Positions 1-49,690 of a stretch of 64,000 bases of DNA are shown here, piece by piece. The stretch comes from Candidatus Parcubacteria bacterium (GTDB lineage: Bacteria; Patescibacteriota; Minisyncoccia; Phycocordibacterales; UBA2100): NCBI GenBank assembly GCA_041168925.1, contig JBEEJY010000019.1:2384-66383 (forward strand), given 5' to 3'. A program made the position numbers and the translations under genes. Below the pieces are notes generated by a model. It was not told where the DNA came from. It was given only the letters and a program-made list of their open reading frames with translations, and made no database searches. Position 1 is the stretch's first letter. The number at the start of each line of letters is the position of its first letter.

Positions 1-6
1 GCTTCG

Positions 7-35
7 GCAGCCGCGGGCCGCTTTTTATATTGTGT
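7..35 (+). terminator. Possible rho-independent terminator at the window edge
   Basis: Hairpin GCGGC-agccgcgg-GCCGC followed by TTTTTAT. The upstream gene lies outside the window. Confidence 0.3.
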
Positions 36-40
36 TGCCT

Positions 41-69
41 TGACATATGTTAATAGAGTGATATAATGC
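41..69 (+). promoter_or_regulatory. Sigma70-like promoter
   Basis: TTGACA, 16-nt spacer, TATAAT. It precedes a roughly 170-nt leader that contains an 8-bp stem (GAGTGAGG...CCTCACTC) before the ORF at 244. Confidence 0.45.
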
Positions 70-243
70 CAAACTCTTGACTGTTCAGCCATACCGCTCA
101 CATGGTGAGCCGTGTTGCTGGGCCGTTAAGCCCAACGTTCTTTGACGATTCGCTGCAAATTGAGTGAGGACTGCACGCCTTCGACTCGGTCGTGGTTGTA
201 CAGCCCTCACTCAAGACGCCGGTCATGAGGGCCCGGCACAACC

Positions 244-597
244 GTGAGAATAGTCATGAAAAAGACACTCATCGTCGCTACCGCCCTCGTCTTGATCGCC
301 TCCACTGCTTCTTCCGCTACGGAGTTCACCTTCAAGATCGTCGGTGGCGCCCCCGAAGGCTCGTCATTCCACAACTATCAGCCGTACGGCGATCCTACCC
401 GGACCTGCCCAGGCGGTAATGTCCGCTTGGAGCCCGCAAAGCCGAACGCCGGCGGCAAGAAGATGACCAAGGAGGCGATCGCCCGCGGCGACAAACGCTG
501 GCACGTGGTCTGCGTGCGCGGCCCCGTCCCGCAGCAGGGTGATCAGCCACCCGCGCCGCAGCAGCGTCGCACGCAGCGCCAGATCCGCCAGAATTGA
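244..597 (+). CDS. Small secreted protein, unknown function
   Basis: N-terminal signal peptide MKKTLIVATALVLIASTASSA, Pro/Gln-rich C-terminus. No recognisable family. Confidence 0.5.
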   Translation: MRIVMKKTLIVATALVLIASTASSATEFTFKIVGGAPEGSSFHNYQPYGDPTRTCPGGNVRLEPAKPNAGGKKMTKEAIARGDKRWHVVCVRGPVPQQGDQPPAPQQRRTQRQIRQN

Positions 598-686
598 TCG
601 GCAGATCTATGGAACGGGCTCGACAGCGTTTGCTGTCGATGCCCGTTCCGCCACTTTTCCAAGAATCCAAGAATCAACGGCACACC

Positions 687-714
687 TTGACAATTGGATT
701 ATCACTGATATAAT
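687..714 (+). promoter_or_regulatory. Consensus sigma70-like promoter for the repeat protein gene
   Basis: TTGACA(687-692), 16 nt, TATAAT(709-714), located 59 nt upstream of the ATG at 773. Confidence 0.5.
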
Positions 715-772
715 CTCGAGGTTTTCAAAATTATAAAAGATTATTAGGACGGATAATAAAATGTAAACGATT

Positions 773-2227
773 ATGACAAATGCATCTGTAAAGAATACGT
801 TCGCTGTTCTGTCAGTGTTCGCCACGTTGGCGATTTCTATGGGCGCATTTGCCAGCATCGCCAATGCCCAGGAGGACATGGGATATATTGACTCCTACGG
901 TGACAACTTGGGTTACGTTGATAGCTATGGAGACAATCTCGGCTATGTCGATAGCTACGGCGACAACCTTGGTTACATGGATACGTACGGCGACAACCTT
1001 GGTTACATGGACAGCTATGGCAGTAATCTCGGCTATCTCGATTCGTACGGTGATAATCTGGGCTACCTCGACACCTACGGCAATAATCTCGGCTACATGG
1101 ATACTTACGGAAACGACATCTCTGGCACCGACGTGTACGGCACGGATGTGACGTACGAAGAGGGGATCGGATACTCGTACCACGAATATACCGACACCTA
1201 CGGCTACGACACGTATTCCTCTGGCGGTTATGGCGGCTACGGCGGTGGTTTTGGAGGCGGATTCGGCGGAGGCGGTTACGGAGGCGGACGCACCTTCTCG
1301 GCTCCTGGCTTTCCTAGCTTCTCGTACCCGAGCTATCCTTCCTACCCGAGCTATCCGCCCTCTCGTCCGCAGCCCCCGGTTTATCCTCCGGTCATAACGA
1401 CTCCGGTCTCAAACGTTAGCAACAACACCTGCACCGGCGGAAGCTGCAACAACTACAACAACAATAACTACAATTACAACGACAACAGCATCAACGGCAG
1501 CTTCAACACCAACACGAACACCAATACGAATGTGGCGCCGGTCGTGCCTGTCGCGATCGCTCCGGTGACCTATCCTATCAGCTACACGATTCCGCAAACC
1601 CCGGTCATCTACCCGGCTCCGGTCCAAAACCTCTACTGCGTCATCACGGCGGGCCCGACTTCGATCAAGAACGGCCAGCCTGCAGTACTCGCGTGGAGCG
1701 CGCCGGGCGCCACGAGCGCATGGCTCTCCGATGGCATCGGTATCGTCTCTGCGAACGGTTCTCTCACGGTACGCCCGAGCCGCTCGACGACGTACATCCT
1801 CACGGTGACCGGTCCTGGCGGCACGCGCACCTGCTCGACCGTCGTCAATGTCTCAGGCATGCCGTACGTCTCGCTCTCGCAGATTCCGTACACCGGCTTC
1901 GACTTCGGTCCGTTCGGCAACATGATCTACTGGCTCTCGCTCGCGCTTTTCGCGATCGCCGGCGCCTATCTCTTGGTCTATTACCGAGGCGGCATGCTCT
2001 CGCTCGCGAGCGTCGCGCTCGCTCGCACTACCCGATCGGTCGCGGAAGCGCCGGTACGAATAGTGGAAGCGGCAGCGAGGAAAATCGAGGAAGTAGTCAT
2101 CGCTCCGGTAGCCGCATCTCTCGAGAACCTTCCGGCGTTCGAAAAACGCGCCGTAACCAATGACTCGCTGACCTTCAGCGCATCGAAAAACGGCGAAGCG
2201 CCCCGCATCACCATCAATCGCAACTAA
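773..2227 (+). CDS. Repeat-rich type-I membrane/surface protein
   Basis: Signal peptide, then 8 copies of (D/M)(S/T)YG(D/N)NLGY(V/M/L), then a Gly/Tyr-rich block, an SYPSYPSYP run and an Asn-rich tract. It also carries a roughly 75-aa Cys-bracketed beta-domain, a C-terminal TM helix and a cytoplasmic tail. Confidence 0.75.
   Translation: MTNASVKNTFAVLSVFATLAISMGAFASIANAQEDMGYIDSYGDNLGYVDSYGDNLGYVDSYGDNLGYMDTYGDNLGYMDSYGSNLGYLDSYGDNLGYLDTYGNNLGYMDTYGNDISGTDVYGTDVTYEEGIGYSYHEYTDTYGYDTYSSGGYGGYGGGFGGGFGGGGYGGGRTFSAPGFPSFSYPSYPSYPSYPPSRPQPPVYPPVITTPVSNVSNNTCTGGSCNNYNNNNYNYNDNSINGSFNTNTNTNTNVAPVVPVAIAPVTYPISYTIPQTPVIYPAPVQNLYCVITAGPTSIKNGQPAVLAWSAPGATSAWLSDGIGIVSANGSLTVRPSRSTTYILTVTGPGGTRTCSTVVNVSGMPYVSLSQIPYTGFDFGPFGNMIYWLSLALFAIAGAYLLVYYRGGMLSLASVALARTTRSVAEAPVRIVEAAARKIEEVVIAPVAASLENLPAFEKRAVTNDSLTFSASKNGEAPRITINRN
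877..1120 (+). repeat. 30-nt tandem coding repeat, about 8 copies
   Basis: The unit gaYagctaYggMgacaaYctYggYtaYRtg repeats in frame inside the 773..2227 CDS. Confidence 0.8.
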
Positions 2228-2286
2228 AGTGCGCGTTTACGATTAACGAAGTCGAAGTGCCGCCGTCCTCAAGACAGACAAAGTGA

Positions 2287-2320
2287 ACAAGACCTCCCCA
2301 TTCGGGGAGGTCTTGTTATC
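2287..2320 (+). terminator. Hairpin terminator after the repeat-protein gene
   Basis: ACAAGACCTCCCC-attc-GGGGAGGTCTTGT followed by a T-containing tract. The U-tract is weak. Confidence 0.45.
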
Positions 2321-2384
2321 AGATTCATATCTTACCTATGGAAGGTGGTCAGTGTAGATAATCCGGACTGTCTGGAGATAACCC

Positions 2385-2419
2385 TACACTTATATGCTCG
2401 GTCGTATAAGATAAGTGTA
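2385..2419. repeat. Palindromic element, copy 1
   Basis: TACACTTAT-N17-ATAAGTGTA, directly abutting the start codon of the regulator gene. Confidence 0.7.
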
Positions 2420-2984
2420 TATGGGCAAATTAGAGGAAACTACGAGACGACGCGCAAAACGGAATCAAATACAGAAAGTAGTTTTAGAGACAATAAAAAT
2501 AGCAGGCATTTTGAGTATTGGCATCGTCGCTCCCAATGTTCTGGGGGCCATGCATAAGCTGGGTCTGATACGGCACGGACGACATGGAGAACTCGTTCGC
2601 AGATCGATCGATCGTATGTATAGTCTTGGCTATTTGAAGCACGTCCGAGGAGGTCTTCAGCTCACTGAGAAAGGCGAGAAGTACCTGCGGACGCTTCAAT
2701 CTAGAATTTTCACTCGAATAAAACCACTCCGATGGGATCATAAATGGCGCATATTAATTTTCGACATTCCCGAACACAACAGGAAGCTCAGGGACCATAT
2801 TCGTCGAACACTGTCGGGGAACGGTTTCATGCAAGTTCAAAAGAGCGTGTGGATATATCCATACGACTGCGAAGACTGGGTCAATCTTTGGAAAGCAGAA
2901 CTCAAAATCGGCAAACAACTTCTTTATCTTATTGTTGATTCTTTGGAAGGGGACTCATCCCTCAAAAGAACCTTTGGCCTGTAG
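2415..2984 (+). CDS. Winged-helix transcriptional regulator, PaaX-like
   Basis: N-terminal wHTH-like region. The C-terminal motif WDHKWRILIFDIPE...LRDHIRRTL..GF..VQKSVWIYP resembles the PaaX C-domain (WDGRWHLV...GF..LQ.GVW). The ORF begins on GTG; an ATG about 6 nt later (MGKLEE) is the likely start. Local GC is about 42% against about 60% elsewhere. Confidence 0.5.
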   Translation: MYMGKLEETTRRRAKRNQIQKVVLETIKIAGILSIGIVAPNVLGAMHKLGLIRHGRHGELVRRSIDRMYSLGYLKHVRGGLQLTEKGEKYLRTLQSRIFTRIKPLRWDHKWRILIFDIPEHNRKLRDHIRRTLSGNGFMQVQKSVWIYPYDCEDWVNLWKAELKIGKQLLYLIVDSLEGDSSLKRTFGL

Positions 2985-2994
2985 TATTTTGTAA

Positions 2995-3029
2995 TACACT
3001 TATGTGCTCGATCGGATAGGATAAGTGTA
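2995..3029. repeat. Palindromic element, copy 2
   Basis: ATACACTTAT-N17-ATAAGTGTAT, 10 nt after the regulator stop codon. It is a direct repeat of copy 1, with 10-bp arms. Confidence 0.7.
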
Positions 3030-3131
3030 TGAGAAGGAATGAGGATAAAAAGGAGGCGAAGAAAGAAGTCGGGGGGGGATGGAAGAAAATGCGGGTAACG
3101 AGTAAGAAGTGCCGTAAGAAGTGAATGTGAA

Positions 3132-4472
3132 TTACAAGCTGCGGGCAGCAATGTCGCGCTTTAACTTCTCGATGAATTTGCCAATCTCTTCCGTCTTCTT
3201 TTGTCCGGTGCGGTTCTCTATCGTCACCGTTTTATCCGCGACCTCCTGATCGCCGACGACGATAAAGTAGGGGATTTTTCCCATTTTCGCATTGCGAATC
3301 CGTTTCCCGAGGCTGTCGCCCTCGAGGAGTTCTACGCGCACTCCGGCTTCTTTGAGTTCTGTCACCGTACTGCGCGCGTACTCCGCGTGCTTGTCGGAAA
3401 CGGGCAACACGGCGACCTGCACGGGCGAGAGCCAGAGCGGGAAAGCGCCTGCGTAGTGTTCGATAAGAAAGGCGATGCTGCGCTCGAAAGTGCCGATAGA
3501 CGAGCGGTGGACGACGAACGCACGATGTTTCTTGCCGTCCTCGCCGATATAGGCGAGGTCGAACCGGTCGGGCATGCAGAAGTCGTACTGCACGGTGAAG
3601 GCGGTATCTTCTTTGCCGTTCACGTTTTTCATCTGTATGTCTATTTTCGGACCGTAGAACGCAGCCTCGTCTTTCGCCTCGAAAAAGTCGCTTCCGCGCT
3701 TCTTCAGCACGCCGCGCAAAAGCTCTTCGCCTTTTTCCCACGCGGTATCGTTTTTATAGTATTTTTCCGCGTTGGAGCGATCTCCGAGCGAAAGCCGGTA
3801 GCGATATTCTTTGCCGTGTTGCAGGCCGAATACTCCCGCGACGTATTCTATGAGATCGAGCGCCTTGTCGGCTTCTTCAGCCGCTTGTCCCTCCGAAGCG
3901 CAAATAATGTGCGCATCCGCGAGGCACATGGATCGCACGCGCTGCAAGCCCATGAGCTCGCCCGATTGCTCGTAGCGATAGAGCTTCGCGAGTTCCGCTA
4001 TTCGCATCGGCAGCTCGCGATAGCTGTGCGGTTTGTCGAGATAGAGCTCGAAGTGGTGCGGGCAGGTCATCGGTCGGAGCATGAATTCTTCGTCGTCGAT
4101 GACGATGGGCGCGTACATCGAATCCTTGTAGTGCGGGTAGTGACCGCTTTTGCGATACAAGTCGAGCTTCGCGATATCGGGCGTATAGACATGCAAGTAA
4201 CCCCGTTTGATTTCTTCATCCACTATGAAGCGTTCAAGCTCGCGGCGTATGACTGACCCGCGCGGAGTCCAGAGGGGGAGTCCTTTGCCTACGGCGTCGG
4301 AGAAGGTGAAGAGATCAAGTTCGCGACCCAACTTCTTGTGGTCGCGTTCATTGGCATCGGCCGCCGGCTCGTTCTTCATCGACCTAATATAGCAAGGAAT
4401 TGCGCTACGTAAAATCGAAGCGGCGGCCGAGAACTTGTCTCGGTCGCCGCGTTTATCCGCTGTAGCGAACAC
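3132..4472 (-). CDS. thrS: Threonyl-tRNA synthetase, catalytic and anticodon-binding core only
   Basis: RDHKKLGRELDLF, class II motifs (YRYEQSGEL...RVRS...ADAHII), C-terminal anticodon-binding domain. The N-terminal TGS and editing domains are absent. The start may instead be the downstream Met (MKNEP...). Confidence 0.9.
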   Translation of the reverse strand: MFATADKRGDRDKFSAAASILRSAIPCYIRSMKNEPAADANERDHKKLGRELDLFTFSDAVGKGLPLWTPRGSVIRRELERFIVDEEIKRGYLHVYTPDIAKLDLYRKSGHYPHYKDSMYAPIVIDDEEFMLRPMTCPHHFELYLDKPHSYRELPMRIAELAKLYRYEQSGELMGLQRVRSMCLADAHIICASEGQAAEEADKALDLIEYVAGVFGLQHGKEYRYRLSLGDRSNAEKYYKNDTAWEKGEELLRGVLKKRGSDFFEAKDEAAFYGPKIDIQMKNVNGKEDTAFTVQYDFCMPDRFDLAYIGEDGKKHRAFVVHRSSIGTFERSIAFLIEHYAGAFPLWLSPVQVAVLPVSDKHAEYARSTVTELKEAGVRVELLEGDSLGKRIRNAKMGKIPYFIVVGDQEVADKTVTIENRTGQKKTEEIGKFIEKLKRDIAARSL

Positions 4473-4892
4473 TTACCCGACGATATCGATGGCGTCGCAG
4501 AACCGCAGGACATTGCGTTTGAGTTGATCCCGCGGAATCTGTTGCTGATGCGCCATCATGAGCAAACTGATCTCCCCGGCAACCCCGGCGACCCAGAGCT
4601 CCAACTCGCTCGGATCCACGGTTTCTTCCATGGCCTTGGCGATCTTATCCCAATATTCGAGATCAAATTGTCTCTGCTTGTCACCGATCACTCCGGTCAC
4701 CATATGGTTGAAATAATCGGCTAGTGCCCGGAGATTGTTCCTGGGCTTGTCCGGGTTCCTGCGGATTTCTGTAGCAGCTCGTGCCGCCAGCTCGCGAAGT
4801 CTCTTCATGTCTCGATCTCCAACGAATGGATCAAACGAGGCGGAGCAGTCAGCCTCTGTAAAGTTTTTACAGTAAAATATCTCTGTTGTCAA
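4473..4892 (-). CDS. Hypothetical protein, co-oriented between dnaE and thrS
   Basis: 139-aa ORF whose stop abuts the thrS start. No recognisable motif. Confidence 0.45.
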   Translation of the reverse strand: MTTEIFYCKNFTEADCSASFDPFVGDRDMKRLRELAARAATEIRRNPDKPRNNLRALADYFNHMVTGVIGDKQRQFDLEYWDKIAKAMEETVDPSELELWVAGVAGEISLLMMAHQQQIPRDQLKRNVLRFCDAIDIVG

Positions 4893-4894
4893 AT

Positions 4895-7800
4895 TTACAA
4901 CGCCTTTGCGCGTTCCACTACGAAACTAGGTTCGCCGTTGCGCTCCGAGATCCTGCCTTTGATCGCGATGCATGCGCCAGGCGCCATGAGTTGTTCATAC
5001 TCTTTAAAAGTGCGCGGGAACGCGATCGCTTCGATGCCGTCGCTGAAATCCACGATCTTGAGAAAACCCATTCGTTCGCCGTTCTTGGTTGTATTGACGC
5101 GTGCCTGCTCGATAAAGCCCGCGATGACCGTCTCGACGCCGCGCATGTTTTCCTTGGCGTGCTTGATCGTCTTTTTCGCGTCGGTGAATTTCGCGCGATG
5201 CTTGTCGAGCGGATGTCCGGAGACGTAGAGGCCGAGCAGCTCTTTCTCCCACGAAAGCAGCACATCGAGCGGCACGGGCTCCGCACGTTTTAGCGTGAGC
5301 TGCACACGCTCGTGCGAACCGAGCGCCGCCTCAGAAAAGAGCGACCCTTGATCTTGCGGCGCACTCAGCTGTTCCCGGTGATACTCAAGAAGAGTCTCAA
5401 GGTTCGCCATGAGCTCTCCGCGGGTAATCTGCATATCATCGAATGCGCCGCACTGGATGAGCGATTCGAGAGATTTCTTGTTGAGATTTTTGTCGGGAAT
5501 GCGCGAGAGAAAATCCGCGATGTTGGAAAACGGGCCGCCTTTTTCCCGTGCCGCGATGATGGAATCCGCGACTCCGGTGCCGAAATTTTTTATCGAATAC
5601 AATCCGAAGCGGATATTCTTTTCGTCGATGACGGTGAAATTGCCCTGACTTTCTTGCACGGAGGGAGGCCATATGGTGATGCCCATCCGCTTGCACTCCC
5701 GCACCACCTCGGCGACTTTCTCCACGTCGCCCGCATCGGCGGTGAGGAGCGCGGCCATGTAATCGACGGCGAAGTTTGCTTTCATATATGCGGTCTTGTA
5801 CGCCAGATTGCCGTAGCTTGCGGCATGCGCTTTGTTGAATCCGTAGGCGGCGAACGTCTCGATCTGTTCCCACAGTGTTTGCACCGCGTCTTTTTTCATG
5901 CCGTTTTTGATGCATCCTTGCGCAAACTTCTCTTTTTGCGCCTTCATCTCGGCTGGAATCTTTTTGCCCATCGCTTTACGGAATTTATCGGCCTCACCCC
6001 ACGAGTAACCGGCGAGCTCCACCGCGATCATCATGACGTCGTCTTGGTAGATGAGGACGCCGTAGGTCGGCTTCAGGATTTTTTCCATGCGCGGATCGAG
6101 GTAGCGCACTCGCGAAGGATTGCGCTTGCGTTCGATGTACTCGGGGATGAAGGCCATCGGTCCGGGTCGATAGAGCGCGACCATCGCGTTTAGATCATGA
6201 ATGACGGTCGGCATCAGCTCTTTGAGGTACGAGGTCATGCCGCCACCCGCCATTTGAAAGACTCCGAGCGTTTCGCCGCGTGCGAGCATCCCGTAGGTCT
6301 TCTTGTCGTCGAGGGGTATTTTTTCGAGATCGATCGTTTTGCCGAGACGCTTTCCAACGCGCTCGACCGAATCCGCGAGGACGGAGAGATTGGTGAGACC
6401 GAGGATATCGAATTTCAAAAGGCCGACGCCGCCGTATTCGTCGGCGATCGAATACATATCGTACTGCGTGATGATGTGATTCCCCTTCGGGTCGATCTGG
6501 ATGGGAGAGAAATCGCTGACTTTGGTCGGCGCGATAACGACACCCGCGGCGTGCACGCCGACATGGCGCGCGTTGCCTTCGATCTTGCGCGCGAGGTCGA
6601 GGACCTCGCGCGCATCCGCGTCCCTCTTGTACACGTCGGCGAGTTCGGGGGCGTCTTTGAGCGCGTTTTCAAGCGTCACCGGAAATCCTTGCTTGCCAAA
6701 GGGGATTAATTTCGCGATCGTATCGCCGAGGCCGTATGGATGCCCAAGCGCTCTGGCGACATCGCGCACAGCGGCGCGCGCCATCATGGTGCCGAAGGTG
6801 CCGATCTGCGCCACTTTGTCGACGCCGTATTTTTCTCTCACGTAGTCGATGAGCTCGTCGCGACGGTTGTCTGCGATGTCCATGTCGATGTCGGGCGCGG
6901 TCGGCCGTTCGGGGTTGAGGAACCGCTCGAAAGGCATTTGGAACGCGATCGGATCAACGGTCGTGATGCCGCAAAGGTACGAAATGAGCGATCCCGCGGC
7001 GGAGCCGCGGGTATTGGTGTAGATCCCGGCCTCTCTCGCATGGCGCAGCAAGTCGGCGACGATAAGAAAGTACGAGGCGTAGCCCTTTTTTGAAATGATC
7101 TCGAGCTCGTAGTCCATGCGCGCGCACAGTTCAGGGGTCTCTCGCATCCCGCGCTCCTTGATGCCGCGTTCGGCGAGAGACCGGAGTTCGCCGTCGTGCG
7201 TCGCGTTCGCAGCGATCGGGAAATAGGGAAGGATCGCCTTTCCGAGGGTCAGTTCGAGGTTGCACGATTGCGCCACCCTCTCGGTGTTTTCCAGGGCCTG
7301 CGGCAGCTGCTCGAAGAGTTCTCGCGCGCGAGCTCGCGAAATGAAAGAAAAATCGTGCGCGCCTTCCTCGAAACCGCGGTTGAGGGTCGAGCCGGTGCGG
7401 ATCTTGTTGACGAGCTCGCGCGCGAGCGCGTCGTCTTGCTTCAGATAATAGGCATCGTGGGCGGCGACGAGCGGGATCCGGAGGCGGTCGGCCACAGATG
7501 CGATCTCGCGCGCTCGCGTTGCGTGCCCATCGATCTCCGGGTGCATGGTGATCTCCGTGAAAAGATCGCTTTGAAAAAGATGCGCGTACCAATCCATCAC
7601 CTCTTCGGCTTTTTGCGCGTTGCCGTCGCGAAGCGCTCGCGCATGTTCGCCGCCAAACGACGGAAGGATGGCGATCAGCCCCTCCCGATGCTCTTCGACG
7701 AGTTCGCGGTCAACGCGCGGACGGTAATAAAAGCCCTCAAGGTGCGAGCGGGAGACGAGCTGCAGCAGATTGCGGTACCCTGCTTCGTTTTTCGCGAGCA

Positions 7801-8077
7801 AAACGAGCCGCGACGAACGGTCATCCACCCGATGCTCTTTGTCGTGTCGCGTGCGCGCCGCGACGAAAAAATCCACCCCGATGATAGGCTTCACCGCGTT
7901 GTCTTTGCACTCTTTATAGAATTCTATGGCACCGTAGAGGTTGCCGCTGTCTGTGAGAGCCAGGGATTTTTGTCCGTCCGTAGCAGCCGCGGCAACAAGA
8001 TCCGGAATTTTCGGCAATGCTTCGAGCAGCGAGTAGTGCGAGTGTGTATGCAAATGGACAAAATCACGCGCACTCAT
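4895..8077 (-). CDS. dnaE: DNA polymerase III alpha subunit
   Basis: N-terminal PHP domain (HLHTHSHYSLLEA) and polymerase core. 1060 aa. Confidence 0.95.
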   Translation of the reverse strand: MSARDFVHLHTHSHYSLLEALPKIPDLVAAAATDGQKSLALTDSGNLYGAIEFYKECKDNAVKPIIGVDFFVAARTRHDKEHRVDDRSSRLVLLAKNEAGYRNLLQLVSRSHLEGFYYRPRVDRELVEEHREGLIAILPSFGGEHARALRDGNAQKAEEVMDWYAHLFQSDLFTEITMHPEIDGHATRAREIASVADRLRIPLVAAHDAYYLKQDDALARELVNKIRTGSTLNRGFEEGAHDFSFISRARARELFEQLPQALENTERVAQSCNLELTLGKAILPYFPIAANATHDGELRSLAERGIKERGMRETPELCARMDYELEIISKKGYASYFLIVADLLRHAREAGIYTNTRGSAAGSLISYLCGITTVDPIAFQMPFERFLNPERPTAPDIDMDIADNRRDELIDYVREKYGVDKVAQIGTFGTMMARAAVRDVARALGHPYGLGDTIAKLIPFGKQGFPVTLENALKDAPELADVYKRDADAREVLDLARKIEGNARHVGVHAAGVVIAPTKVSDFSPIQIDPKGNHIITQYDMYSIADEYGGVGLLKFDILGLTNLSVLADSVERVGKRLGKTIDLEKIPLDDKKTYGMLARGETLGVFQMAGGGMTSYLKELMPTVIHDLNAMVALYRPGPMAFIPEYIERKRNPSRVRYLDPRMEKILKPTYGVLIYQDDVMMIAVELAGYSWGEADKFRKAMGKKIPAEMKAQKEKFAQGCIKNGMKKDAVQTLWEQIETFAAYGFNKAHAASYGNLAYKTAYMKANFAVDYMAALLTADAGDVEKVAEVVRECKRMGITIWPPSVQESQGNFTVIDEKNIRFGLYSIKNFGTGVADSIIAAREKGGPFSNIADFLSRIPDKNLNKKSLESLIQCGAFDDMQITRGELMANLETLLEYHREQLSAPQDQGSLFSEAALGSHERVQLTLKRAEPVPLDVLLSWEKELLGLYVSGHPLDKHRAKFTDAKKTIKHAKENMRGVETVIAGFIEQARVNTTKNGERMGFLKIVDFSDGIEAIAFPRTFKEYEQLMAPGACIAIKGRISERNGEPSFVVERAKAL

Positions 8078-16273: not shown

Positions 16274-23127
<6,854 letters not shown>

Positions 23128-43549: not shown

Positions 43550-46500
43550 CTATTGTATACCGACGGTCGTCGATGCGGCTTTCGACGGCCCGTCGATCGT
43601 CGTGCAGGCGAGGATGAACGTCGTCGGACTCGCGAGTGCAGGCGTCGTAATCGCGCCGTTCAGATTCGTCTTTCCGGCGTTATCCGCAGTAAACCGCGGG
43701 AAGGCCGGGCTCGATATCACGCAGGAGTCCATGCCGGTCGTGATCCAGCCGAGCTGTGATTTCTCTCCGCGCTTCACGGTCTTTGGATTGGCGATCAAGA
43801 TGATTCGCGGAGGTTTACCCGTTTTTGGCGTCGAGGTTGCGCGCCCATCCGGAGCAGGAGCCGACGTTGCCGAAGGGGACACCGACACGCCGACGCTGCA
43901 GCTTGTAGGGGAGGACGAACCGGCGGCGCCGTAGACCGTGAGCGTGTAGGTCGTTGTCACTGCCGGGTTTTGCGTCATTGAGCCGGAGAGCGGCACTGAA
44001 CCGAAGCCGGACATAATGGCGCTCACGGCATTCACGCTCGACCAGGTGAGTGTCGTCGCTGCATTCGGCGAGACGGTCGTAGGCGAGGCCGATATCGTGC
44101 ACGAAACGATGTCATACCTATTCGGCGTTCCGGTATTCGAAGCCGGGAATGCTTGTTGCGGCGGTCGCGGTGGAGGCGGTTGACCGCCTTGCGAGCCCAT
44201 ACCATCGGCACCGGCACTATTTCCTTGCATGCCGTTCTGTCCGGAAGGGGAAGCGCCAGGACCGCCCGGATAACCCGGACCTCCGGGGGTGCTCGGGCTC
44301 GGTTCTGTCGGGCGGTTATCCTCGAAAAGATACTCATCTGGCTTTTGCGGATTCGGCGCGCCTTTCGGCAGCGTATCGTTGGTCGCCGGCAGCGGAGCTT
44401 TCGTATCGGGATTTATGATCGGTTTCCCTTCGGGATCGACAAGAAGGTCCACTTTATTGTCCGGACCGATGGACCCTTCGGGGAGCGGAAGCGTACCGAC
44501 GGCGTTGCCATCCTCGTCGGTAATATCGTGCATAACGAGAGGATTGATCGTACCTCCTCCGATCATTTGAGGCTGATAGGAAGCCCTGTCGCCCATTCCG
44601 CCTTTTGCGAGCTGCGCCGGATCGAGCCCGCCGGCGTGCGAGGGAAACATGCCGGTTTCCCAGCTTCCGGCCTTGCCGTAATTGGTGGGTCCGAGATCGT
44701 AATGCATCCAGTCGCGCGTCACGCCGCTTCCGAAATAGCCGCCCCAGTTGCCGCGGCTCTTGAATTCCGGGAACAACTGATCCTGGTAATGCTTCACGTT
44801 TTGCATGAAGATGCGATACGGCTCGTACGACGAAGGAGTCTTAAGCCAGGAGAGCGGTTTTCCTTGCGCGTCGTGCAGCTGTACATCGCACGCGAGCGCG
44901 TACGTGCCGCCCTGGTAGGTCCCGCGCTGTTCGTGATACGAACCCGACCCGTTGCGGTCTCCCGCGCATCCGTTCACCCGCGCGTGCCAGCCGGGCGGCA
45001 AATCCTTGGTCGCTTCTTCCATCGCCTTGCGCACAATGGGATGCATCGTCGTCGTGACTCCGGAGCCGGGACCGCCCCAGCCATAGAGGCGCGGTTCGGC
45101 GGATCTCGGCGGGGTCGCTGTCTTTGCCGCCTCGCCGTCTTTGCGCTTGGCGGTAAATGTCTTCCACTGAGCATCGCAGGGCATCGTGCCGTTGGCGCAG
45201 CCGCGCGAGAGGGCGGCTTGCTTCCGGAATGCCTGCTCGCAAGCGGATTTGTCGCCGAGCGTGCACTCGAAAGCCGTACCTGTCTGCGGATCCACCATGT
45301 ACGGGCCATTCGGCGCGGGCACTTCGGGAGTGCCTTCGACCGGAGCACCGCTGCCTTTCGGCGTCGCATAGTCGCGGACGTTGCAATATTCGCACCCCGA
45401 GGAGAATGTTGCGCCCATGTTGGAATAATTCTGGTTGCCGTTGATCTGGTTCGCGATATTTTGCAGATCCGAAAGTCCGCCGCCAAACCCGACGTACCAC
45501 ACGGGCATGTTGGGTTTACCTATTTTGTTGAGATAGTCTTTCATGCCTGCGGGATTCGGACAGCCGCCTCGCTCACAAATGATCGCAACTGCCGCCGGAT
45601 GCTGCGCAAGCGGCATGAGCCCGTTTAGGCCGGGATTTTTGACGGCGACGCCAAGACCGTTTTGTTGCGCAAGGTCCATGGCCTCCTTATTTGCTTCGAG
45701 GGAATAGCCGTCCTGGTTGTCCATCTCGACATAGGGGATGTTCTGGTTCTTGTAGTGGGTAAATTGACCTTGAAGGTTCTGCTTGAACCCGGGACCGCGC
45801 GGATCCGGCCGATCTTCTTTGTATTGATTTCCGGTACCGGTTCGCGGAAGATAGGGTCCATACTTTCCCGCTGTCTGTCCTTGCGTGAACATATTGACGT
45901 ATCCTATGCAGGCATCGGCATTGCCACACTGGCTCTTCGAGCCGAAGAATTGCGTTTCAACGACCCGGCCGCGCGTATCGCCGCCTCCGCCTCCTCCGAT
46001 AAGGTAACTGAGCGGCTTGCCGGCGAGCGCGCCAGCGCCCGCCCCCGCCGCGCGCGGCATCGGCACGGCCTTGAGACCGGGTACTCGCGCTTTAGCAAGT
46101 TTTTCCTTCAATTCTGGCGGCGGTGGATCGCCTTTGCAACCTCCTTTGGGACACCGAGAGCTCTGCATACTCGCGACCAATGAGGGGAAGATATCGTTTC
46201 CGTTTGTCAGTAATTTGTTATACTCGGCGGCTTTCTCTCGCGTCAGCGGTCCTAGGAGTCGCCACGAGACCTGTTGGCCCGTAGGATAAACAGTATTGCC
46301 GGAAGGAGTATAGCCAGCGCTCTCAGCAAGCGGCGCGTTGATGTCGATGCCTTTCCCCGTCCACGGCGACGGGCCAATATCTACCTGACGCACCACGCGA
46401 CGCTGCCCGTTCGGCAGACGTACCAGAAAATACTGCCCAAGCGTCGCCCAATTATAGAGCGCGATGCCCGGTTCAGTTTGCGGTGCGCCAGGAAGTGCAT

Positions 46501-49500
46501 TTTTTCCGTTATCGCCCGCGTCTCGCCACACGTATCGACATCCAGCGTACGGTCCCCAGCCACACTGACCGAATAAAGAACTTCTGGCGGAGTTGGTGAA
46601 AGATGCGGTATTTATGCCAAGCGGTTGCTGTTCTAGCGGCGCCGCTTGTGCGCTGCCAGCGAACTCTTTTTTGAACGCATCCCACACCTTCGCGAAGATA
46701 TCGGCAAGTTTTTGCAGCGTCGTGCGCTGCTCGTCGTTTTTCTGCGCGTTCGCCTGACTCAACCCTTCGGCGCCCGGTACTCGCGGCGCTTGCGTGTTGA
46801 GCGGCTGCCCTTGCAGCTGTGTGGGAAGCGACGGAGTGTTCGCATCAGGTGGCGTCGCGGCGGTCGTTTTGGAGGGAGGAGTCGCCGTCGGCTTTTCAGG
46901 CTGCGTCAGATCGGAGACGCCGGTGCCCTTACCTTTCGCCGCTTCTCCGCGCGCTTGCGCTTCACCTTCGATCGTCGAAGGTGCTCGCGTCGGCTTGAGA
47001 TCGGGCGAGGTTATGGTACCGCCAGAGGTGCCCTGCCGGTTTTTCGAGTCTGTCGGAGTCACACTTTGCGCTTGCGCGATCTTGTCGCCTTGCCGCGCGG
47101 TCTCCGAGGAGCCGGGGGAGTTCGTGGTAGGACATGTAGGAAGCGAGAGATGCGCTTGTCGCTCCTGCGCCGATGCGCTCGCGGGCAGGCAGATCGTCGA
47201 AGGCACGGCAGATTCGGCATCGGGCACCGTCGGTACGCTGCCTTTGATGATATTGGGCGTATATGCGAGCAGTGGTTGCGGAGCAAATGCTGCCGCGATT
47301 CCCTGCGCTTGAGGTGAAGTTGGCGACCATGAGAAAGACGGAAACGGCACGCCGGAAGCGGGAGATGAGGGATAAGACTGCCCGCCTCCTCCCTGACCTG
47401 ATTGTCCCGTCGCTCCGGCGTCGCCGCCTTCGCCTCCTCGAGCCTTCGGCGCTTCGCCGGATGAGAGCTTGGCAGGGCTTGGTGTCGGTTGTTTTTCGGG
47501 TGTGGTGCCTTTTGCGGGCTTTTCTTTCTCCGGAGTCGGCTCCGCCGCGTTCTTTTCCTTCGTCGGCGCCGGGGCTGATTGCGGCGGTTCGGACGGCTTC
47601 GCCTCCGCGATCTTCGTCTTGTCTTGCGGCTGCTCCGCAGGACGAGGCGGGACCTCGGCTAGCTTCGGTTGCTCTTGGGGCTGCTCTTTTGGCTGCTCCT
47701 GCGGGACAACCTGCGGCTCGGGAAGCTCCTTTGGCTTCACTTCCACTTCCGGCAGCGTCTCGGCATATTTTGGCGTTTCCTCCGGTTTGAATTCCGGGAC
47801 AGGCAGTTCGGTCTCGGGAATCACCTCGACCGGGATCACTTCTAGAGGCGTGCTCGGGCTGTAACGAACGCCCTGCGTGATGGAAAGGGCGCGCTCGCGA
47901 TTCCACGCGGCGCGTAGCTCTTCGAGCGTTAGCGCACCCATGCCTTGGCGATCGTAATCCTCTTGCAGGGCGCTCCCGAGTTCGCGCGCTATGCTGACGC
48001 CTGAATCGGGGTTCTGGCCGCGGTAGAAGGGCGAATCGAGACTTTCCAACCACTTCGTATACGAGTCTCCGGCGGCTCCTTCACCGGTGCCGAGGTACCA
48101 GTAGCCGTACCCTTTTGCTTCGAGATAGGCCGATCCTTTCCCCGTAAGGCCGTAATCCTCACCGCGGAATATCGAGCACGACGATACGCCGCAGAACGTC
48201 GCGGGCAGATCGCTTCCCGAAAATTCGCCGGCCTTTCTTTTCACCTCTTCTCTGCGCGCGTTCCAGTCTTCGTCTGACATGCCCTCGGGGCGCGCGATAA
48301 CGGTGGGAGGCGGCGTCGAGGGGCCGCCGGGCTCCGGTTTCCAGGGCGACGGCTCTCCGGGAGTAAGACCCTTCATCTCTGCCGTCAAGGCTTCGCCGGA
48401 TTTCTGCGCCGGAAGCGGTTCTCCGTACGCGGCGAGTTGCATATCGATGTCGTTGAAAAGGCTCTGGCGGATCCCAGACGGGCAGCCCGTATCAGGGCAC
48501 ACCGCGCCCGTACCGGCATCGGCGTAAACATTGAGCTCATGCTGTATGTCCGTCGAGTTGGCCGGAGCGTCGGGAAGAGCGGGTTCAGTACCGTTGAAAA
48601 ACCCTCCGACGCTCGGATTGGACCACAGGTCGCTGCCAAATTCGGCGATCGCGAGGGGCGCGGAGAAACCGGTGAAGACCGAATAGAGCGGCGCGTAGCC
48701 CTGGTCGTAGAATTTCTCGATGTCGCCGACCACGAGCTTATTGGTGTCTTGCAAAAGCTGCCAGTATTCCTGATACCACGGAATGCCTTGCGTCGCAGGT
48801 ACGTTACTTTCAAATCCGGTACTGCCCGAGGATCCGGGAGTCTTGGTGTAGGTGTAGTATTCATCGACGCCGCCCGGGCCCATCGGCGGATAGGTAAGCG
48901 CATATTGATCCTTGAGCTCCGGAATGTACTCGACGATCGCCGCTCCGGTCGTTTCGGGATACGGCGCGGGATTTGCGTACCCTGATATTTGGGCATACAC
49001 GGTCGCCTGATCGAAGTCTCCCCGATTTGCCGCGAGCTGCGCGCTCGCTTGCGCGAACGCGTCTTTGTTGTCGGGCGTTGCGTAAGAATAGGCGATGATG
49101 CCGCCCAAATAATCCTCGGAACCGGCGACGGCTTGCTGGATCGAGCCGATCGTATTCGGCGGATTTTCGAGCGTCACGGGCGCGCCTCCGTACGAGGTAA
49201 ATTCGACTTTGCCGCCGGAGGCCATGAGGCCGCGGATGAGCGCGAGATCCCCCTCACAATCAGGGCCCTTGATACAGCTACCGCCGTCCCATTTGACTTT
49301 GCCCGGCAACTTGGAAGCCTGTTTCGATTCGCAGTCTTTATGCTCCTTGCTTCCGGTCTTGCCGGCGCTATCGCACGGGTCTTTCTCTTTTTTGACGTCG
49401 GGCTTCCCGCTCTTGGCTTCTGAGACTTTCTCGGTCGAAGTTTTCGTCGAGTCTTTGTCTTTCACCGCGTCTTTCGGAGACTCATTGCTCGCATCGGAGG

Positions 49501-49690
49501 AGTATGCGGCCTCGAATCCGGCCTCATCGACCGACGCGATAAGCGCGCGCGAATCGGGATACAACGTCGCGCTTCCGAGCGAGATCCCGCTTGCGACGAG
49601 AAGGGAAAAAGCGACCGTGAGGAAGCCTTTGAAAATATAACCAACAAACCCCTCGTCTTCAGGGTGCATATACGCATTGAATGATAGCAA
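43550..49690 (-). CDS. Giant (2046 aa) secreted multidomain protein with peptidoglycan-hydrolase-like and Ig-like modules
   Basis: N-terminal signal/TM, then a Pro/Glu/Lys-rich linker (PEPQVVPQEQPKEQPQEQPK) and a Gly/Ser/Thr-rich spacer. An RlpA/3D-like double-psi beta-barrel block (LPNGQRRVVRQVDIGPSPWTGKGIDINAPLAESAGY) follows. A VanY/M15-like block (SGSYHEQ..GGTYALACDV....DWMHYDL) is also present. The C-terminus carries 2-3 Cys-bracketed Ig-like domains (L.W...TTY.LTV). Confidence 0.85.
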   Translation of the reverse strand: MLSFNAYMHPEDEGFVGYIFKGFLTVAFSLLVASGISLGSATLYPDSRALIASVDEAGFEAAYSSDASNESPKDAVKDKDSTKTSTEKVSEAKSGKPDVKKEKDPCDSAGKTGSKEHKDCESKQASKLPGKVKWDGGSCIKGPDCEGDLALIRGLMASGGKVEFTSYGGAPVTLENPPNTIGSIQQAVAGSEDYLGGIIAYSYATPDNKDAFAQASAQLAANRGDFDQATVYAQISGYANPAPYPETTGAAIVEYIPELKDQYALTYPPMGPGGVDEYYTYTKTPGSSGSTGFESNVPATQGIPWYQEYWQLLQDTNKLVVGDIEKFYDQGYAPLYSVFTGFSAPLAIAEFGSDLWSNPSVGGFFNGTEPALPDAPANSTDIQHELNVYADAGTGAVCPDTGCPSGIRQSLFNDIDMQLAAYGEPLPAQKSGEALTAEMKGLTPGEPSPWKPEPGGPSTPPPTVIARPEGMSDEDWNARREEVKRKAGEFSGSDLPATFCGVSSCSIFRGEDYGLTGKGSAYLEAKGYGYWYLGTGEGAAGDSYTKWLESLDSPFYRGQNPDSGVSIARELGSALQEDYDRQGMGALTLEELRAAWNRERALSITQGVRYSPSTPLEVIPVEVIPETELPVPEFKPEETPKYAETLPEVEVKPKELPEPQVVPQEQPKEQPQEQPKLAEVPPRPAEQPQDKTKIAEAKPSEPPQSAPAPTKEKNAAEPTPEKEKPAKGTTPEKQPTPSPAKLSSGEAPKARGGEGGDAGATGQSGQGGGGQSYPSSPASGVPFPSFSWSPTSPQAQGIAAAFAPQPLLAYTPNIIKGSVPTVPDAESAVPSTICLPASASAQERQAHLSLPTCPTTNSPGSSETARQGDKIAQAQSVTPTDSKNRQGTSGGTITSPDLKPTRAPSTIEGEAQARGEAAKGKGTGVSDLTQPEKPTATPPSKTTAATPPDANTPSLPTQLQGQPLNTQAPRVPGAEGLSQANAQKNDEQRTTLQKLADIFAKVWDAFKKEFAGSAQAAPLEQQPLGINTASFTNSARSSLFGQCGWGPYAGCRYVWRDAGDNGKNALPGAPQTEPGIALYNWATLGQYFLVRLPNGQRRVVRQVDIGPSPWTGKGIDINAPLAESAGYTPSGNTVYPTGQQVSWRLLGPLTREKAAEYNKLLTNGNDIFPSLVASMQSSRCPKGGCKGDPPPPELKEKLAKARVPGLKAVPMPRAAGAGAGALAGKPLSYLIGGGGGGDTRGRVVETQFFGSKSQCGNADACIGYVNMFTQGQTAGKYGPYLPRTGTGNQYKEDRPDPRGPGFKQNLQGQFTHYKNQNIPYVEMDNQDGYSLEANKEAMDLAQQNGLGVAVKNPGLNGLMPLAQHPAAVAIICERGGCPNPAGMKDYLNKIGKPNMPVWYVGFGGGLSDLQNIANQINGNQNYSNMGATFSSGCEYCNVRDYATPKGSGAPVEGTPEVPAPNGPYMVDPQTGTAFECTLGDKSACEQAFRKQAALSRGCANGTMPCDAQWKTFTAKRKDGEAAKTATPPRSAEPRLYGWGGPGSGVTTTMHPIVRKAMEEATKDLPPGWHARVNGCAGDRNGSGSYHEQRGTYQGGTYALACDVQLHDAQGKPLSWLKTPSSYEPYRIFMQNVKHYQDQLFPEFKSRGNWGGYFGSGVTRDWMHYDLGPTNYGKAGSWETGMFPSHAGGLDPAQLAKGGMGDRASYQPQMIGGGTINPLVMHDITDEDGNAVGTLPLPEGSIGPDNKVDLLVDPEGKPIINPDTKAPLPATNDTLPKGAPNPQKPDEYLFEDNRPTEPSPSTPGGPGYPGGPGASPSGQNGMQGNSAGADGMGSQGGQPPPPRPPQQAFPASNTGTPNRYDIVSCTISASPTTVSPNAATTLTWSSVNAVSAIMSGFGSVPLSGSMTQNPAVTTTYTLTVYGAAGSSSPTSCSVGVSVSPSATSAPAPDGRATSTPKTGKPPRIILIANPKTVKRGEKSQLGWITTGMDSCVISSPAFPRFTADNAGKTNLNGAITTPALASPTTFILACTTIDGPSKAASTTVGIQ

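Follow-up and report, generated by a model that had tools for sequence, protein, structure and literature searches.

What kind of surface protein is encoded at positions 773..2227 (+) of the stretch of DNA studied here, and how is it held at the cell surface? The stretch, called the window below, comprises 64,000 nucleotides of contig JBEEJY010000019.1 from a Candidatus Parcubacteria bacterium (assembly GCA_041168925.1), and the coding sequence in question specifies 484 amino acids, with a start codon backed by an N-terminus, MTNAS[VI]KN, that is conserved among orthologs. A first-pass annotation had described its product as a secreted, membrane-tethered surface protein made of repeats, and our analysis supports that outline. 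More specifically, we consider it probable that a sortase processes the product and that its C-terminal block serves as an LPXTG-type cell-wall sorting signal peculiar to the lineage. In this reading the protein would be an abundant, Sec-secreted, type-I surface protein, strongly expressed by an uncultivated, Kaiserbacteria-like member of the Candidate Phyla Radiation (CPR).

The protein belongs to a family that is almost confined to Kaiserbacteria and Paceibacterota and was previously unannotated. Among 5.8 billion proteins searched, 177 matched, all of them labelled 'hypothetical', and the named homologs came from Candidatus Kaiserbacteria, Paceibacterota or Patescibacteria. Neither Pfam, NCBIfam nor PDB sequences matched the 484-residue protein, apart from one spurious pentapeptide-repeat match at E<=1. 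The architecture common to the family consists of a signal peptide, tandem repeats, low-complexity Gly/Ser/Tyr and Pro/Tyr segments and then conserved motifs, with TNTCxxxSC...DNSINGSFNT and VQYVYPQ upstream of one or more immunoglobulin (Ig)-like domains. These are followed by a C-terminal block, PYVSL[ST]QIPYTGFDxGPxGNAxYW, a transmembrane (TM) helix, a variable tail and the ending T.DSM....S..G.APRIVI.R. A search with the C-terminal 124 residues found 15 short fragments, all of the same family, which were used to build a profile of the C-terminal module. Run exhaustively against 1.84 billion cluster representatives, this profile gave 869 matching proteins with E<=1e-3, of which 143 had E<=1e-30; the best 150 of the 869 carry the module at their C-terminal end or close to it. 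Among the GTDB species genomes, 98 relatives were found at 77 loci, almost all of them from Kaiserbacteria or Paceibacterota. It is the C-terminal module, rather than the Ig-like domain or the repeats, that defines the family.

This module has the tripartite layout of a sorting signal. The block PYVSLSQ-IPYTG-FDFGPFGN and its TM helix occupy 1862..1984 (+); the pentapeptide IPYTG (residues 371-375; 1883..1897), carried by the peptide VSLSQIPYTGFDFGP, fits the consensus [ILV]PxTG and is followed by an 8-residue spacer, a 21-residue hydrophobic helix and an Arg. The motif is present in 120 of 121 homologs, and L368, Q370, I371, P372, Y373, T374 and G375 are invariant in alignment A2. All 113 module-bearing ORFs (open reading frames) of related loci carry xPYTG, as IPYTG in 109 cases and as L/V/M/TPYTG in four. 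Hydropathy places the hydrophobic segment after the motif at residues 384-404, and AlphaFold2 (AF2) models a helix over residues 379-403 with a predicted local distance difference test (pLDDT) score of 85-88. At the other end of the chain, a Sec-type signal peptide, as found in sortase substrates, covers residues 1-32 (773..868, +), with a hydrophobic core at residues 8-31, the sequence A-N-A before Q33, a modelled helix at residues 7-22 and at least 90% conservation of A32. The first-pass annotation had correctly noted a TM anchor and a cytoplasmic tail, here residues 384-404 and the 80 residues beyond. The near-invariant motif and the sortase linked to it in relatives point to the helix as the hydrophobic part of an LPXTG-type signal, which the annotation missed along with the conserved end of the tail.

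A sortase gene accompanies the family in related genomes. We scanned 81 related loci with a local hidden Markov model (HMM). Upstream DNA was long enough for a count in 54 of them, and in 51 of these a sortase is encoded on the same strand as the IPYTG gene, 0.36-8.6 kb upstream of it. Pfam confirms the sortase of the related loci (PF04203, 6.7e-21), and these enzymes, one of them encoded at 4950..5612 of related locus L002, keep the F[GA]HS, TLVTC and AR[YF] motifs. Four long contigs share the gene order gyrB (+), a TM/CARDB protein (-), the sortase (+), five to nine variable small genes (+), the family gene (+), thrS (-) and dnaE (-). Downstream of the gene in the window lie thrS (3132..4472, -) and dnaE (4895..8077, -), which identifies it as the same locus. 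Throughout 1.3 Mb of related loci, no other ORF has both an LPXTG-like motif and a TM segment, and the 64-kb window contains neither another such ORF nor a sortase-like TLxTC ORF.

The IPYTG motif occurs with two kinds of tail. Some 78-86 ORFs with the long-tailed module have 86-150 residues after the motif and PRIVI-type ends. Short-tailed paralogues account for about 23 of the 112 complete xPYTG ORFs and have 36-62 basic-rich residues after the motif in the classical layout. Three of the short-tailed ORFs abut the sortase gene, ending 4 or 18 nt before its start codon or overlapping it by 10 nt. Each locus encodes one to four IPYTG proteins and so forms a small cluster that is expanding. The short-tailed subfamily is often encoded between the long-tailed gene and thrS; its ORFs include those at 6445..7317 of related locus L016, 10480..11358 of L032, 10430..11641 of L034, 11131..12240 of L043 and 1184..2404 of L009, among others. 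These proteins have conserved basic tails of their own, of at least two types, for example ...EVKTAMRNQLRAIRSI... and ...LVRKVAVKLDAVRGA...

Expression signals set the gene apart from its neighbours. A perfect sigma-70 promoter, TTGACA-16-(TG)TATAAT (687..714, +), with 12/12 matches and an extended -10 TG, lies 59 nt upstream of the ATG and is one of only two perfect sigma-70 promoters on both strands of the window. Among 67 long-tail orthologs with upstream sequence, a perfect promoter is found at most 250 nt upstream in 38, and one with at least 11/12 matches in 46, whereas the background rate is 0.02 per 250 nt. The 46 make up about one-fifth of all 214 such sites on both strands of the 81 loci. 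A terminator-like, GC-rich hairpin with a 14-bp stem, assigned to neither strand (2286..2317), follows 59 nt after the stop codon. The conserved perfect promoter and the hairpin indicate that the gene is a separate unit, and it is probably transcribed very strongly. The second perfect promoter of the window (40..67, +), also with a TG extension, lies upstream of an ORF at 244..597 (+) that encodes a signal-peptide protein of unassigned function (117 residues, or 113 as called on Logan contig L082), with phmmer homologues in 5 of the 81 related loci L001-L081.

We propose that the membrane-bound sortase encoded upstream in the relatives, with its His/Cys/Arg triad, would most likely cleave the putative scissile bond T374/G375 and move an ectodomain of about 340 residues to the cell wall. 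Three sections would then be displayed: an Ig-like domain next to the wall, held together by a pair of Cys residues; a disordered stalk of about 150 residues, rich in Pro, Tyr, Asn and Gly, with a small conserved CxxxxC/DNSINGSFN motif; and, at the tip, a distal, polyanionic, Tyr-rich repeat array free of Lys and Arg. As the sequence of the tip evolves fast while its composition is held constant, the tip looks like a sticky acidic 'brush', which might engage a partner surface, cations or the cell's own wall. Cleavage would leave a 110-residue remnant in the membrane, with a conserved cytoplasmic APRIxIxR beta-hairpin that classical substrates lack. Since this cytoplasmic end is conserved, the remnant probably serves a separate function, which may be the retention or pacing of processing, signalling, or service as a degradation tag.

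Several observations weigh against this reading. The tail is not short and positive but 80 residues long, with a conserved C-terminal motif. The NCBIfam LPXTG-anchor model gives no match to the protein, and the sortase of the related loci scores below every curated class cut-off (best class E, 47.9 bits against 160). In this genome, the two available contigs, from JGI (70,620 bp, with the window at 2384..66383) and Logan, both reach about 2.4-2.5 kb to the left of the window and stop 3.3 kb upstream of the gene, so its own sortase would lie beyond the contig ends and the linkage is known from relatives. That linkage lies inside a lineage-wide syntenic block (gyrB...thrS-dnaE) in nearly all loci and is therefore inseparable from inherited gene order. 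Moreover, the genes between the sortase and the family gene are variable and unrelated and the latter has its own promoter, so the two are not in one operon. Cleavage and peptidoglycan attachment in Kaiserbacteria are what we infer from sequence.

The main alternative, which we regard as possible but distinctly less probable, is an uncleaved type-I membrane protein in which VSLSQIPYTGFDxGP is a juxtamembrane structural or partner-binding element, the C-terminus connects the protein to a cytoplasmic partner, as a receptor, anchor or scaffold would, and the sortase is near by inherited synteny. The tail speaks for this alternative. This basic segment of 80 residues (isoelectric point 10.2; 1985..2224, +) ends in the motif T.DS(M/L)....S..G.APRI(V/T)I.R. 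at 2156..2224, which reads APRIVI[TN]R[SN] at its end in the family and is found at the extreme C-terminus of at least 102 of 121 homologs; AF2 predicts a beta-hairpin there, with strands at residues 464-469 and 478-483 (pLDDT 72-75). The alternative is also favoured by conservation that runs well past the pentapeptide, by synteny of the region throughout the lineage, and by the gene's own promoter and terminator-like hairpin. However, the pentapeptide matches the sortase consensus exactly, it recurs in the paralogues with classical short basic tails that abut the sortase, and the 1.3 Mb of related DNA offers no alternative sortase substrate. The two explanations are not mutually exclusive.

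A more elaborate form of the sortase reading, which we hold to be rather unlikely, would make the protein a two-in-one device. Cleavage would at once deposit the main acidic, Tyr-rich coat protein on the wall and free the 110-residue remnant, whose conserved APRIVITR hairpin would be read by a cytoplasmic partner, perhaps a coat-assembly sensor similar to streptococcal C-peptide sensing or an AAA+ protease for which the hairpin is a degron, and the hypervariable tip repeats would be the determinant of host or partner contact. If so, production of the surface coat would be coupled to the intracellular state in a reduced-genome symbiont.

The ectodomain itself is acidic and poor in fixed structure. 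It has an isoelectric point of 4.05 and 12% Tyr, and Lys and Arg together make up on average 1.3% of ectodomain residues across the family; the acidic ectodomain and the basic tail are in line with the positive-inside rule. In the AF2 model, based on an alignment with 60 homologs, only the Ig-like domain, the TM helix and the C-terminal hairpin are ordered, and residues 27-280 score below 50. Behind the repeats come degenerate Y/D/T units (residues 120-149), a Gly/Tyr/Phe block (150-172) and a Pro/Tyr stalk with an SYPSYPSYP run (180-207), together at 1130..1393 (+) and predicted to be disordered. They are followed by an Asn-rich tract (residues 213-253), the domain bracketed by C289 and C354 (288-362), IPYTG, the hydrophobic segment and the tail. 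The Gly/Tyr block, the SYPSYPSYP run and the Asn-rich tract had all been named in the first-pass annotation, and each was confirmed, but the conserved TNTCxxxSC...DNSINGSFNT inside the Asn-rich tract had been overlooked. In the region 1409..1597 (+), which has low pLDDT, we find NTCTGGSCN (CxxxxC), DNSINGSFNT and PVxYP(V/I)(Q/S)Y(V/T)(Y/I)PQ; by regular-expression counts, these motifs occur in 42-44 of 121 homologs, and column conservation is seen in alignment A2.

The Cys-bracketed domain of about 75 residues was likewise real. At residues 288-362 (1634..1858, +; family HMM E=2e-31), AF2 predicts a beta-sandwich of seven to eight strands with a pLDDT of about 96 over residues 285-362, and C289 and C354 are at least 90% conserved. 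Foldseek matched it to SoxY (5e-4), the PKD domain of an archaeal S-layer protein, CD4 and HPI S-layer, with E values from 5e-4 to 1e-2 and a TM-score of about 0.5 relative to the targets, which places it among generic Ig-like, PKD-like and S-layer domains. A 75-position HMM was built from 272 copies of the domain in family members and paralogues, the latter with one to nine copies in tandem. Within the window, this HMM matched only the 484-residue protein and a giant ORF of 2046 residues (43550..49690, -). The domain belongs to no curated family in Pfam, for either of these proteins, or in NCBIfam, where P0034 and P0054 were also searched, and its multi-copy homologs have no precomputed Pfam match. 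It is a shared extracellular module, Ig-like and outside the Pfam and NCBIfam families.

Two to three copies of the domain had been claimed for the C-terminus of the giant ORF; one is clear. The Pfam search recommended for this question gave no match, but the local family HMM and pairwise alignment tie this canonical copy (residues 1863-1938; 43877..44104, -) to the domain of the 484-residue protein: BLASTP gives 41% identity over 78 residues (E 4e-7), the HMM 1.5e-19 and hhalign a probability of 99.3%, and AF2 models it with a pLDDT of 85-96. The second (residues 1962-2046; 43553..43807, -) is a divergent beta-sandwich with shifted Cys and an inserted loop. Its BLASTP alignment is gappy (30% identity, E 6e-5) and it is weak in profile comparisons (HMM iE 1.8; hhalign probability 12.9%, E 2e-3); used as a seed, it converges on the family in round 2 of jackhmmer in a small local database. 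AF2 gives it a beta-sandwich with a pLDDT of 74-92, from an alignment borrowed from multi-Ig family members, which biases the model towards the Ig fold. Foldseek places the pair with tandem Ig-like domains, for example in GhpA, Fc receptors, KIR and invasin. The giant ORF has no match in Pfam, NCBIfam or PDB sequence searches, and these two domains are all that was recognisable in it. It is essentially an orphan, whose database matches are itself (P0229, 100% identical, titled 'MAG hypothetical protein RLZZ416_628, Candidatus Parcubacteria bacterium') and one weak match of 3% coverage; it has an N-terminal hydrophobic segment and lacks the IPYTG anchor.

The N-terminal repeats had been described as eight near-perfect units of 10 residues with a 30-nt period and as a likely hotspot for length variation. 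The units and the periodicity are there: the array at 890..1129 (+; residues 40-119) comprises seven good units, D[ST]YG[DSN]NLGY[VML], and a degenerate eighth, DTYGNDISGT, and Tandem Repeats Finder (TRF) reports 894..1110 with period 30, 7.2 copies and 72% matches. The units are acidic, aromatic, free of Lys and Arg and predicted to be disordered (pLDDT 31-38). At the DNA level, however, the repeat is far from perfect. Mean identity between units is 71% for DNA and 82% for protein, and codon differences between units are synonymous in 100 cases and non-synonymous in 37, which indicates an old array maintained at the peptide level. With a longest exact direct repeat of 26 nt, units that have diverged synonymously are a poor substrate for slippage, and the array is a weak hotspot, even though copy number does differ between species, at 3-10 strict copies in the ten orthologs that share the window's own unit type. 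As far as we can tell, the repeat is not an assembly artefact: over window positions 1..6802, the independent Logan assembly SRR35181043_1179 matches at 100% identity and without gaps, which argues against a collapsed or expanded repeat. Two further ORFs over the array, at 812..1183 (-) and 849..1151 (+), are not genes but frame shadows produced by its 30-nt period. Elsewhere in the window, TRF found a 22-nt tandem repeat at 22466..22507 (1.9 copies, GAAAGAGCGCGAAAACCGCGAA).

Across the family, the repeats change in sequence and keep their character. Clear N-terminal tandem repeats are present in 127 of 179 members, with periods of 7-28 residues (mode 10) and largely unrelated consensus units, such as YSYGGYEPT, GEDYYMTASPY, DTGWYDTGDGYYQ and DFGNYDMAQY. 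Their composition is nevertheless constant (D/E 18%, Y/F/W 25%, G 17%, K/R 0.05%), which indicates that composition and repetitiveness, rather than a fold, are under selection. These data bear on two further alternatives. The reading put forward in the first-pass annotation, a generic repeat-built, TM-anchored display protein that combines the Ig-like module with a slippage-prone repeat giving phase or length variation, draws on the presence of the domain in the giant ORF and on the differing copy numbers among unit-sharing species. We judge it improbable in view of the diverged DNA units with their many synonymous changes and single 26-nt exact repeat, the identical independent assembly, and the fact that the IPYTG module and tail, not the Ig-like domain, are the most conserved and family-defining parts. 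Still harder to sustain is a tip made rigid by a pentapeptide-repeat-like beta-solenoid with two pentapeptides per unit: the period of 10 is twice five and NCBIfam gives a weak pentapeptide-repeat match (E 0.87), but this match reaches 9.7 bits against a cut-off of 125, the array has very low pLDDT, and the range of periods and unrelated units in the orthologs is incompatible with one conserved fold.

IPxTG-type motifs occur in Gram-positive pilins. Least credible of all, despite the Ig-like domain and the nearby sortase, is a sortase-polymerised pilin with a pilin-motif Lys joined to the Thr of IPYTG, because only one Lys is present in the mature ectodomain (K302, in a non-conserved column), a YPKN-like motif is absent, Lys and Arg are scarce across the family, the one small Ig-like domain is not of CnaA/CnaB type and the chain is mostly predicted to be disordered. 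The 'Pam' pili of CPR bacteria were also considered; they are assembled by donor-strand exchange and are unrelated.

Other genes of the locus deserve brief mention. The CARDB-like TM protein (PF07705, E 6e-6; for example 3723..4769, -, in related locus L002) has a C-terminal tail very rich in Tyr, Asn and Gln and is encoded divergently from the sortase in nearly every related locus; possibly it is another conserved part of the envelope that belongs to this system. The gene right after the sortase (4135..4704 in L001, 5615..6085 in L002 and 4763..5263 in L003) encodes a small secreted protein with short His/Val/Pro/Gly-rich repeats, such as HPVDIAHAVDIAHAV and GYPVPVGRPITLGY, in which we found no LPXTG-like motif and no family match. 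Between the 484-residue protein and thrS, the window encodes a protein with a PaaX_M/Cas2-like domain (2415..2984, +; PF20803, E 8.5e-21). Its position differs in related loci, and it looks like a mobile or shuffled gene for a small regulator. The threonyl-tRNA synthetase encoded by thrS in the window and in several relatives is short, at about 405-446 residues with only tRNA-synt_2b and HGTP_anticodon, and in other relatives it has 581 residues and faintly matches tRNA_SAD, which suggests that the N-terminal editing region was lost in part of the lineage.

Among known systems, the closest parallel is offered by LPXTG wall-anchored proteins, such as Staphylococcus aureus protein A, the Clf/Sdr proteins and other sortase A or E substrates. 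These share with the present protein a signal peptide, the [ILV]PxTG motif, a short acidic spacer, a helix and a basic residue, as well as acidic low-complexity repeats, Ig-like ectodomain domains and, in its relatives, a sortase neighbourhood. In contrast, the motif is here a fixed IPYTG within a 17-residue invariant block, the tail runs to 80-110 residues with a C-terminal beta-hairpin motif instead of 5-10 basic residues, and the repeats are distal and N-terminal rather than wall-spanning. The protein also lacks a match to Pfam or NCBIfam anchor models, and the sortase of its lineage fits no curated class. Ig-like fibrillar adhesins and stalks (Big, PKD and GhpA-type giants) resemble it in using a seven-strand beta-sandwich as an extracellular spacer, but this protein has one membrane-adjacent domain of no Pfam Ig family on a mostly disordered stalk. 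Lineage-specific motifs with a TM helix and an enzyme encoded nearby are also known from PEP-CTERM/exosortase, PGF-CTERM/archaeosortase and GlyGly-CTERM/rhombosortase, from which the present system differs in its true sortase fold (PF04203), LPXTG-like motif and long tail.

A role for the remnant would have a precedent. In Streptococcus gordonii, the sortase remnant left after cleavage (C-peptide) has a role of its own, through the SGO_1180 two-component system (PMC11326707), which sets a precedent for selection on what is left after cleavage. The streptococcal remnant is a short canonical signal, whereas the one proposed here would carry an 80-residue cytoplasmic tail with a conserved terminus, and a candidate sensor is absent from the evidence here. 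Over half of CPR genomes carry a sortase family according to Méheust et al., in a passage that names no sortase substrates (PMC6744442). In the full texts searched, we found no relevant mention of IPYTG in this sense, nor of Kaiserbacteria linked to sortase. What is new on the known theme of sortase signals is the fixed motif, the long conserved tail and a hypervariable repeat tip that is constrained in composition.

The CPR, or Patescibacteria, make up a large part of bacterial diversity and apparently live attached to other cells. To our knowledge, their surface proteins are almost uncharacterised. If the sortase reading is correct, Kaiserbacteria would gain a defined sorting motif, IPYTG, and a probable major surface protein with a strong, conserved promoter and a fast-evolving tip, and the long conserved tail would extend the sortase-signal paradigm in an unusual way. 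The Ig-like domain of about 75 residues and the C-terminal module could become new Pfam or NCBIfam families. The protein would thus provide a concrete candidate for how ultra-small CPR bacteria build their surface.

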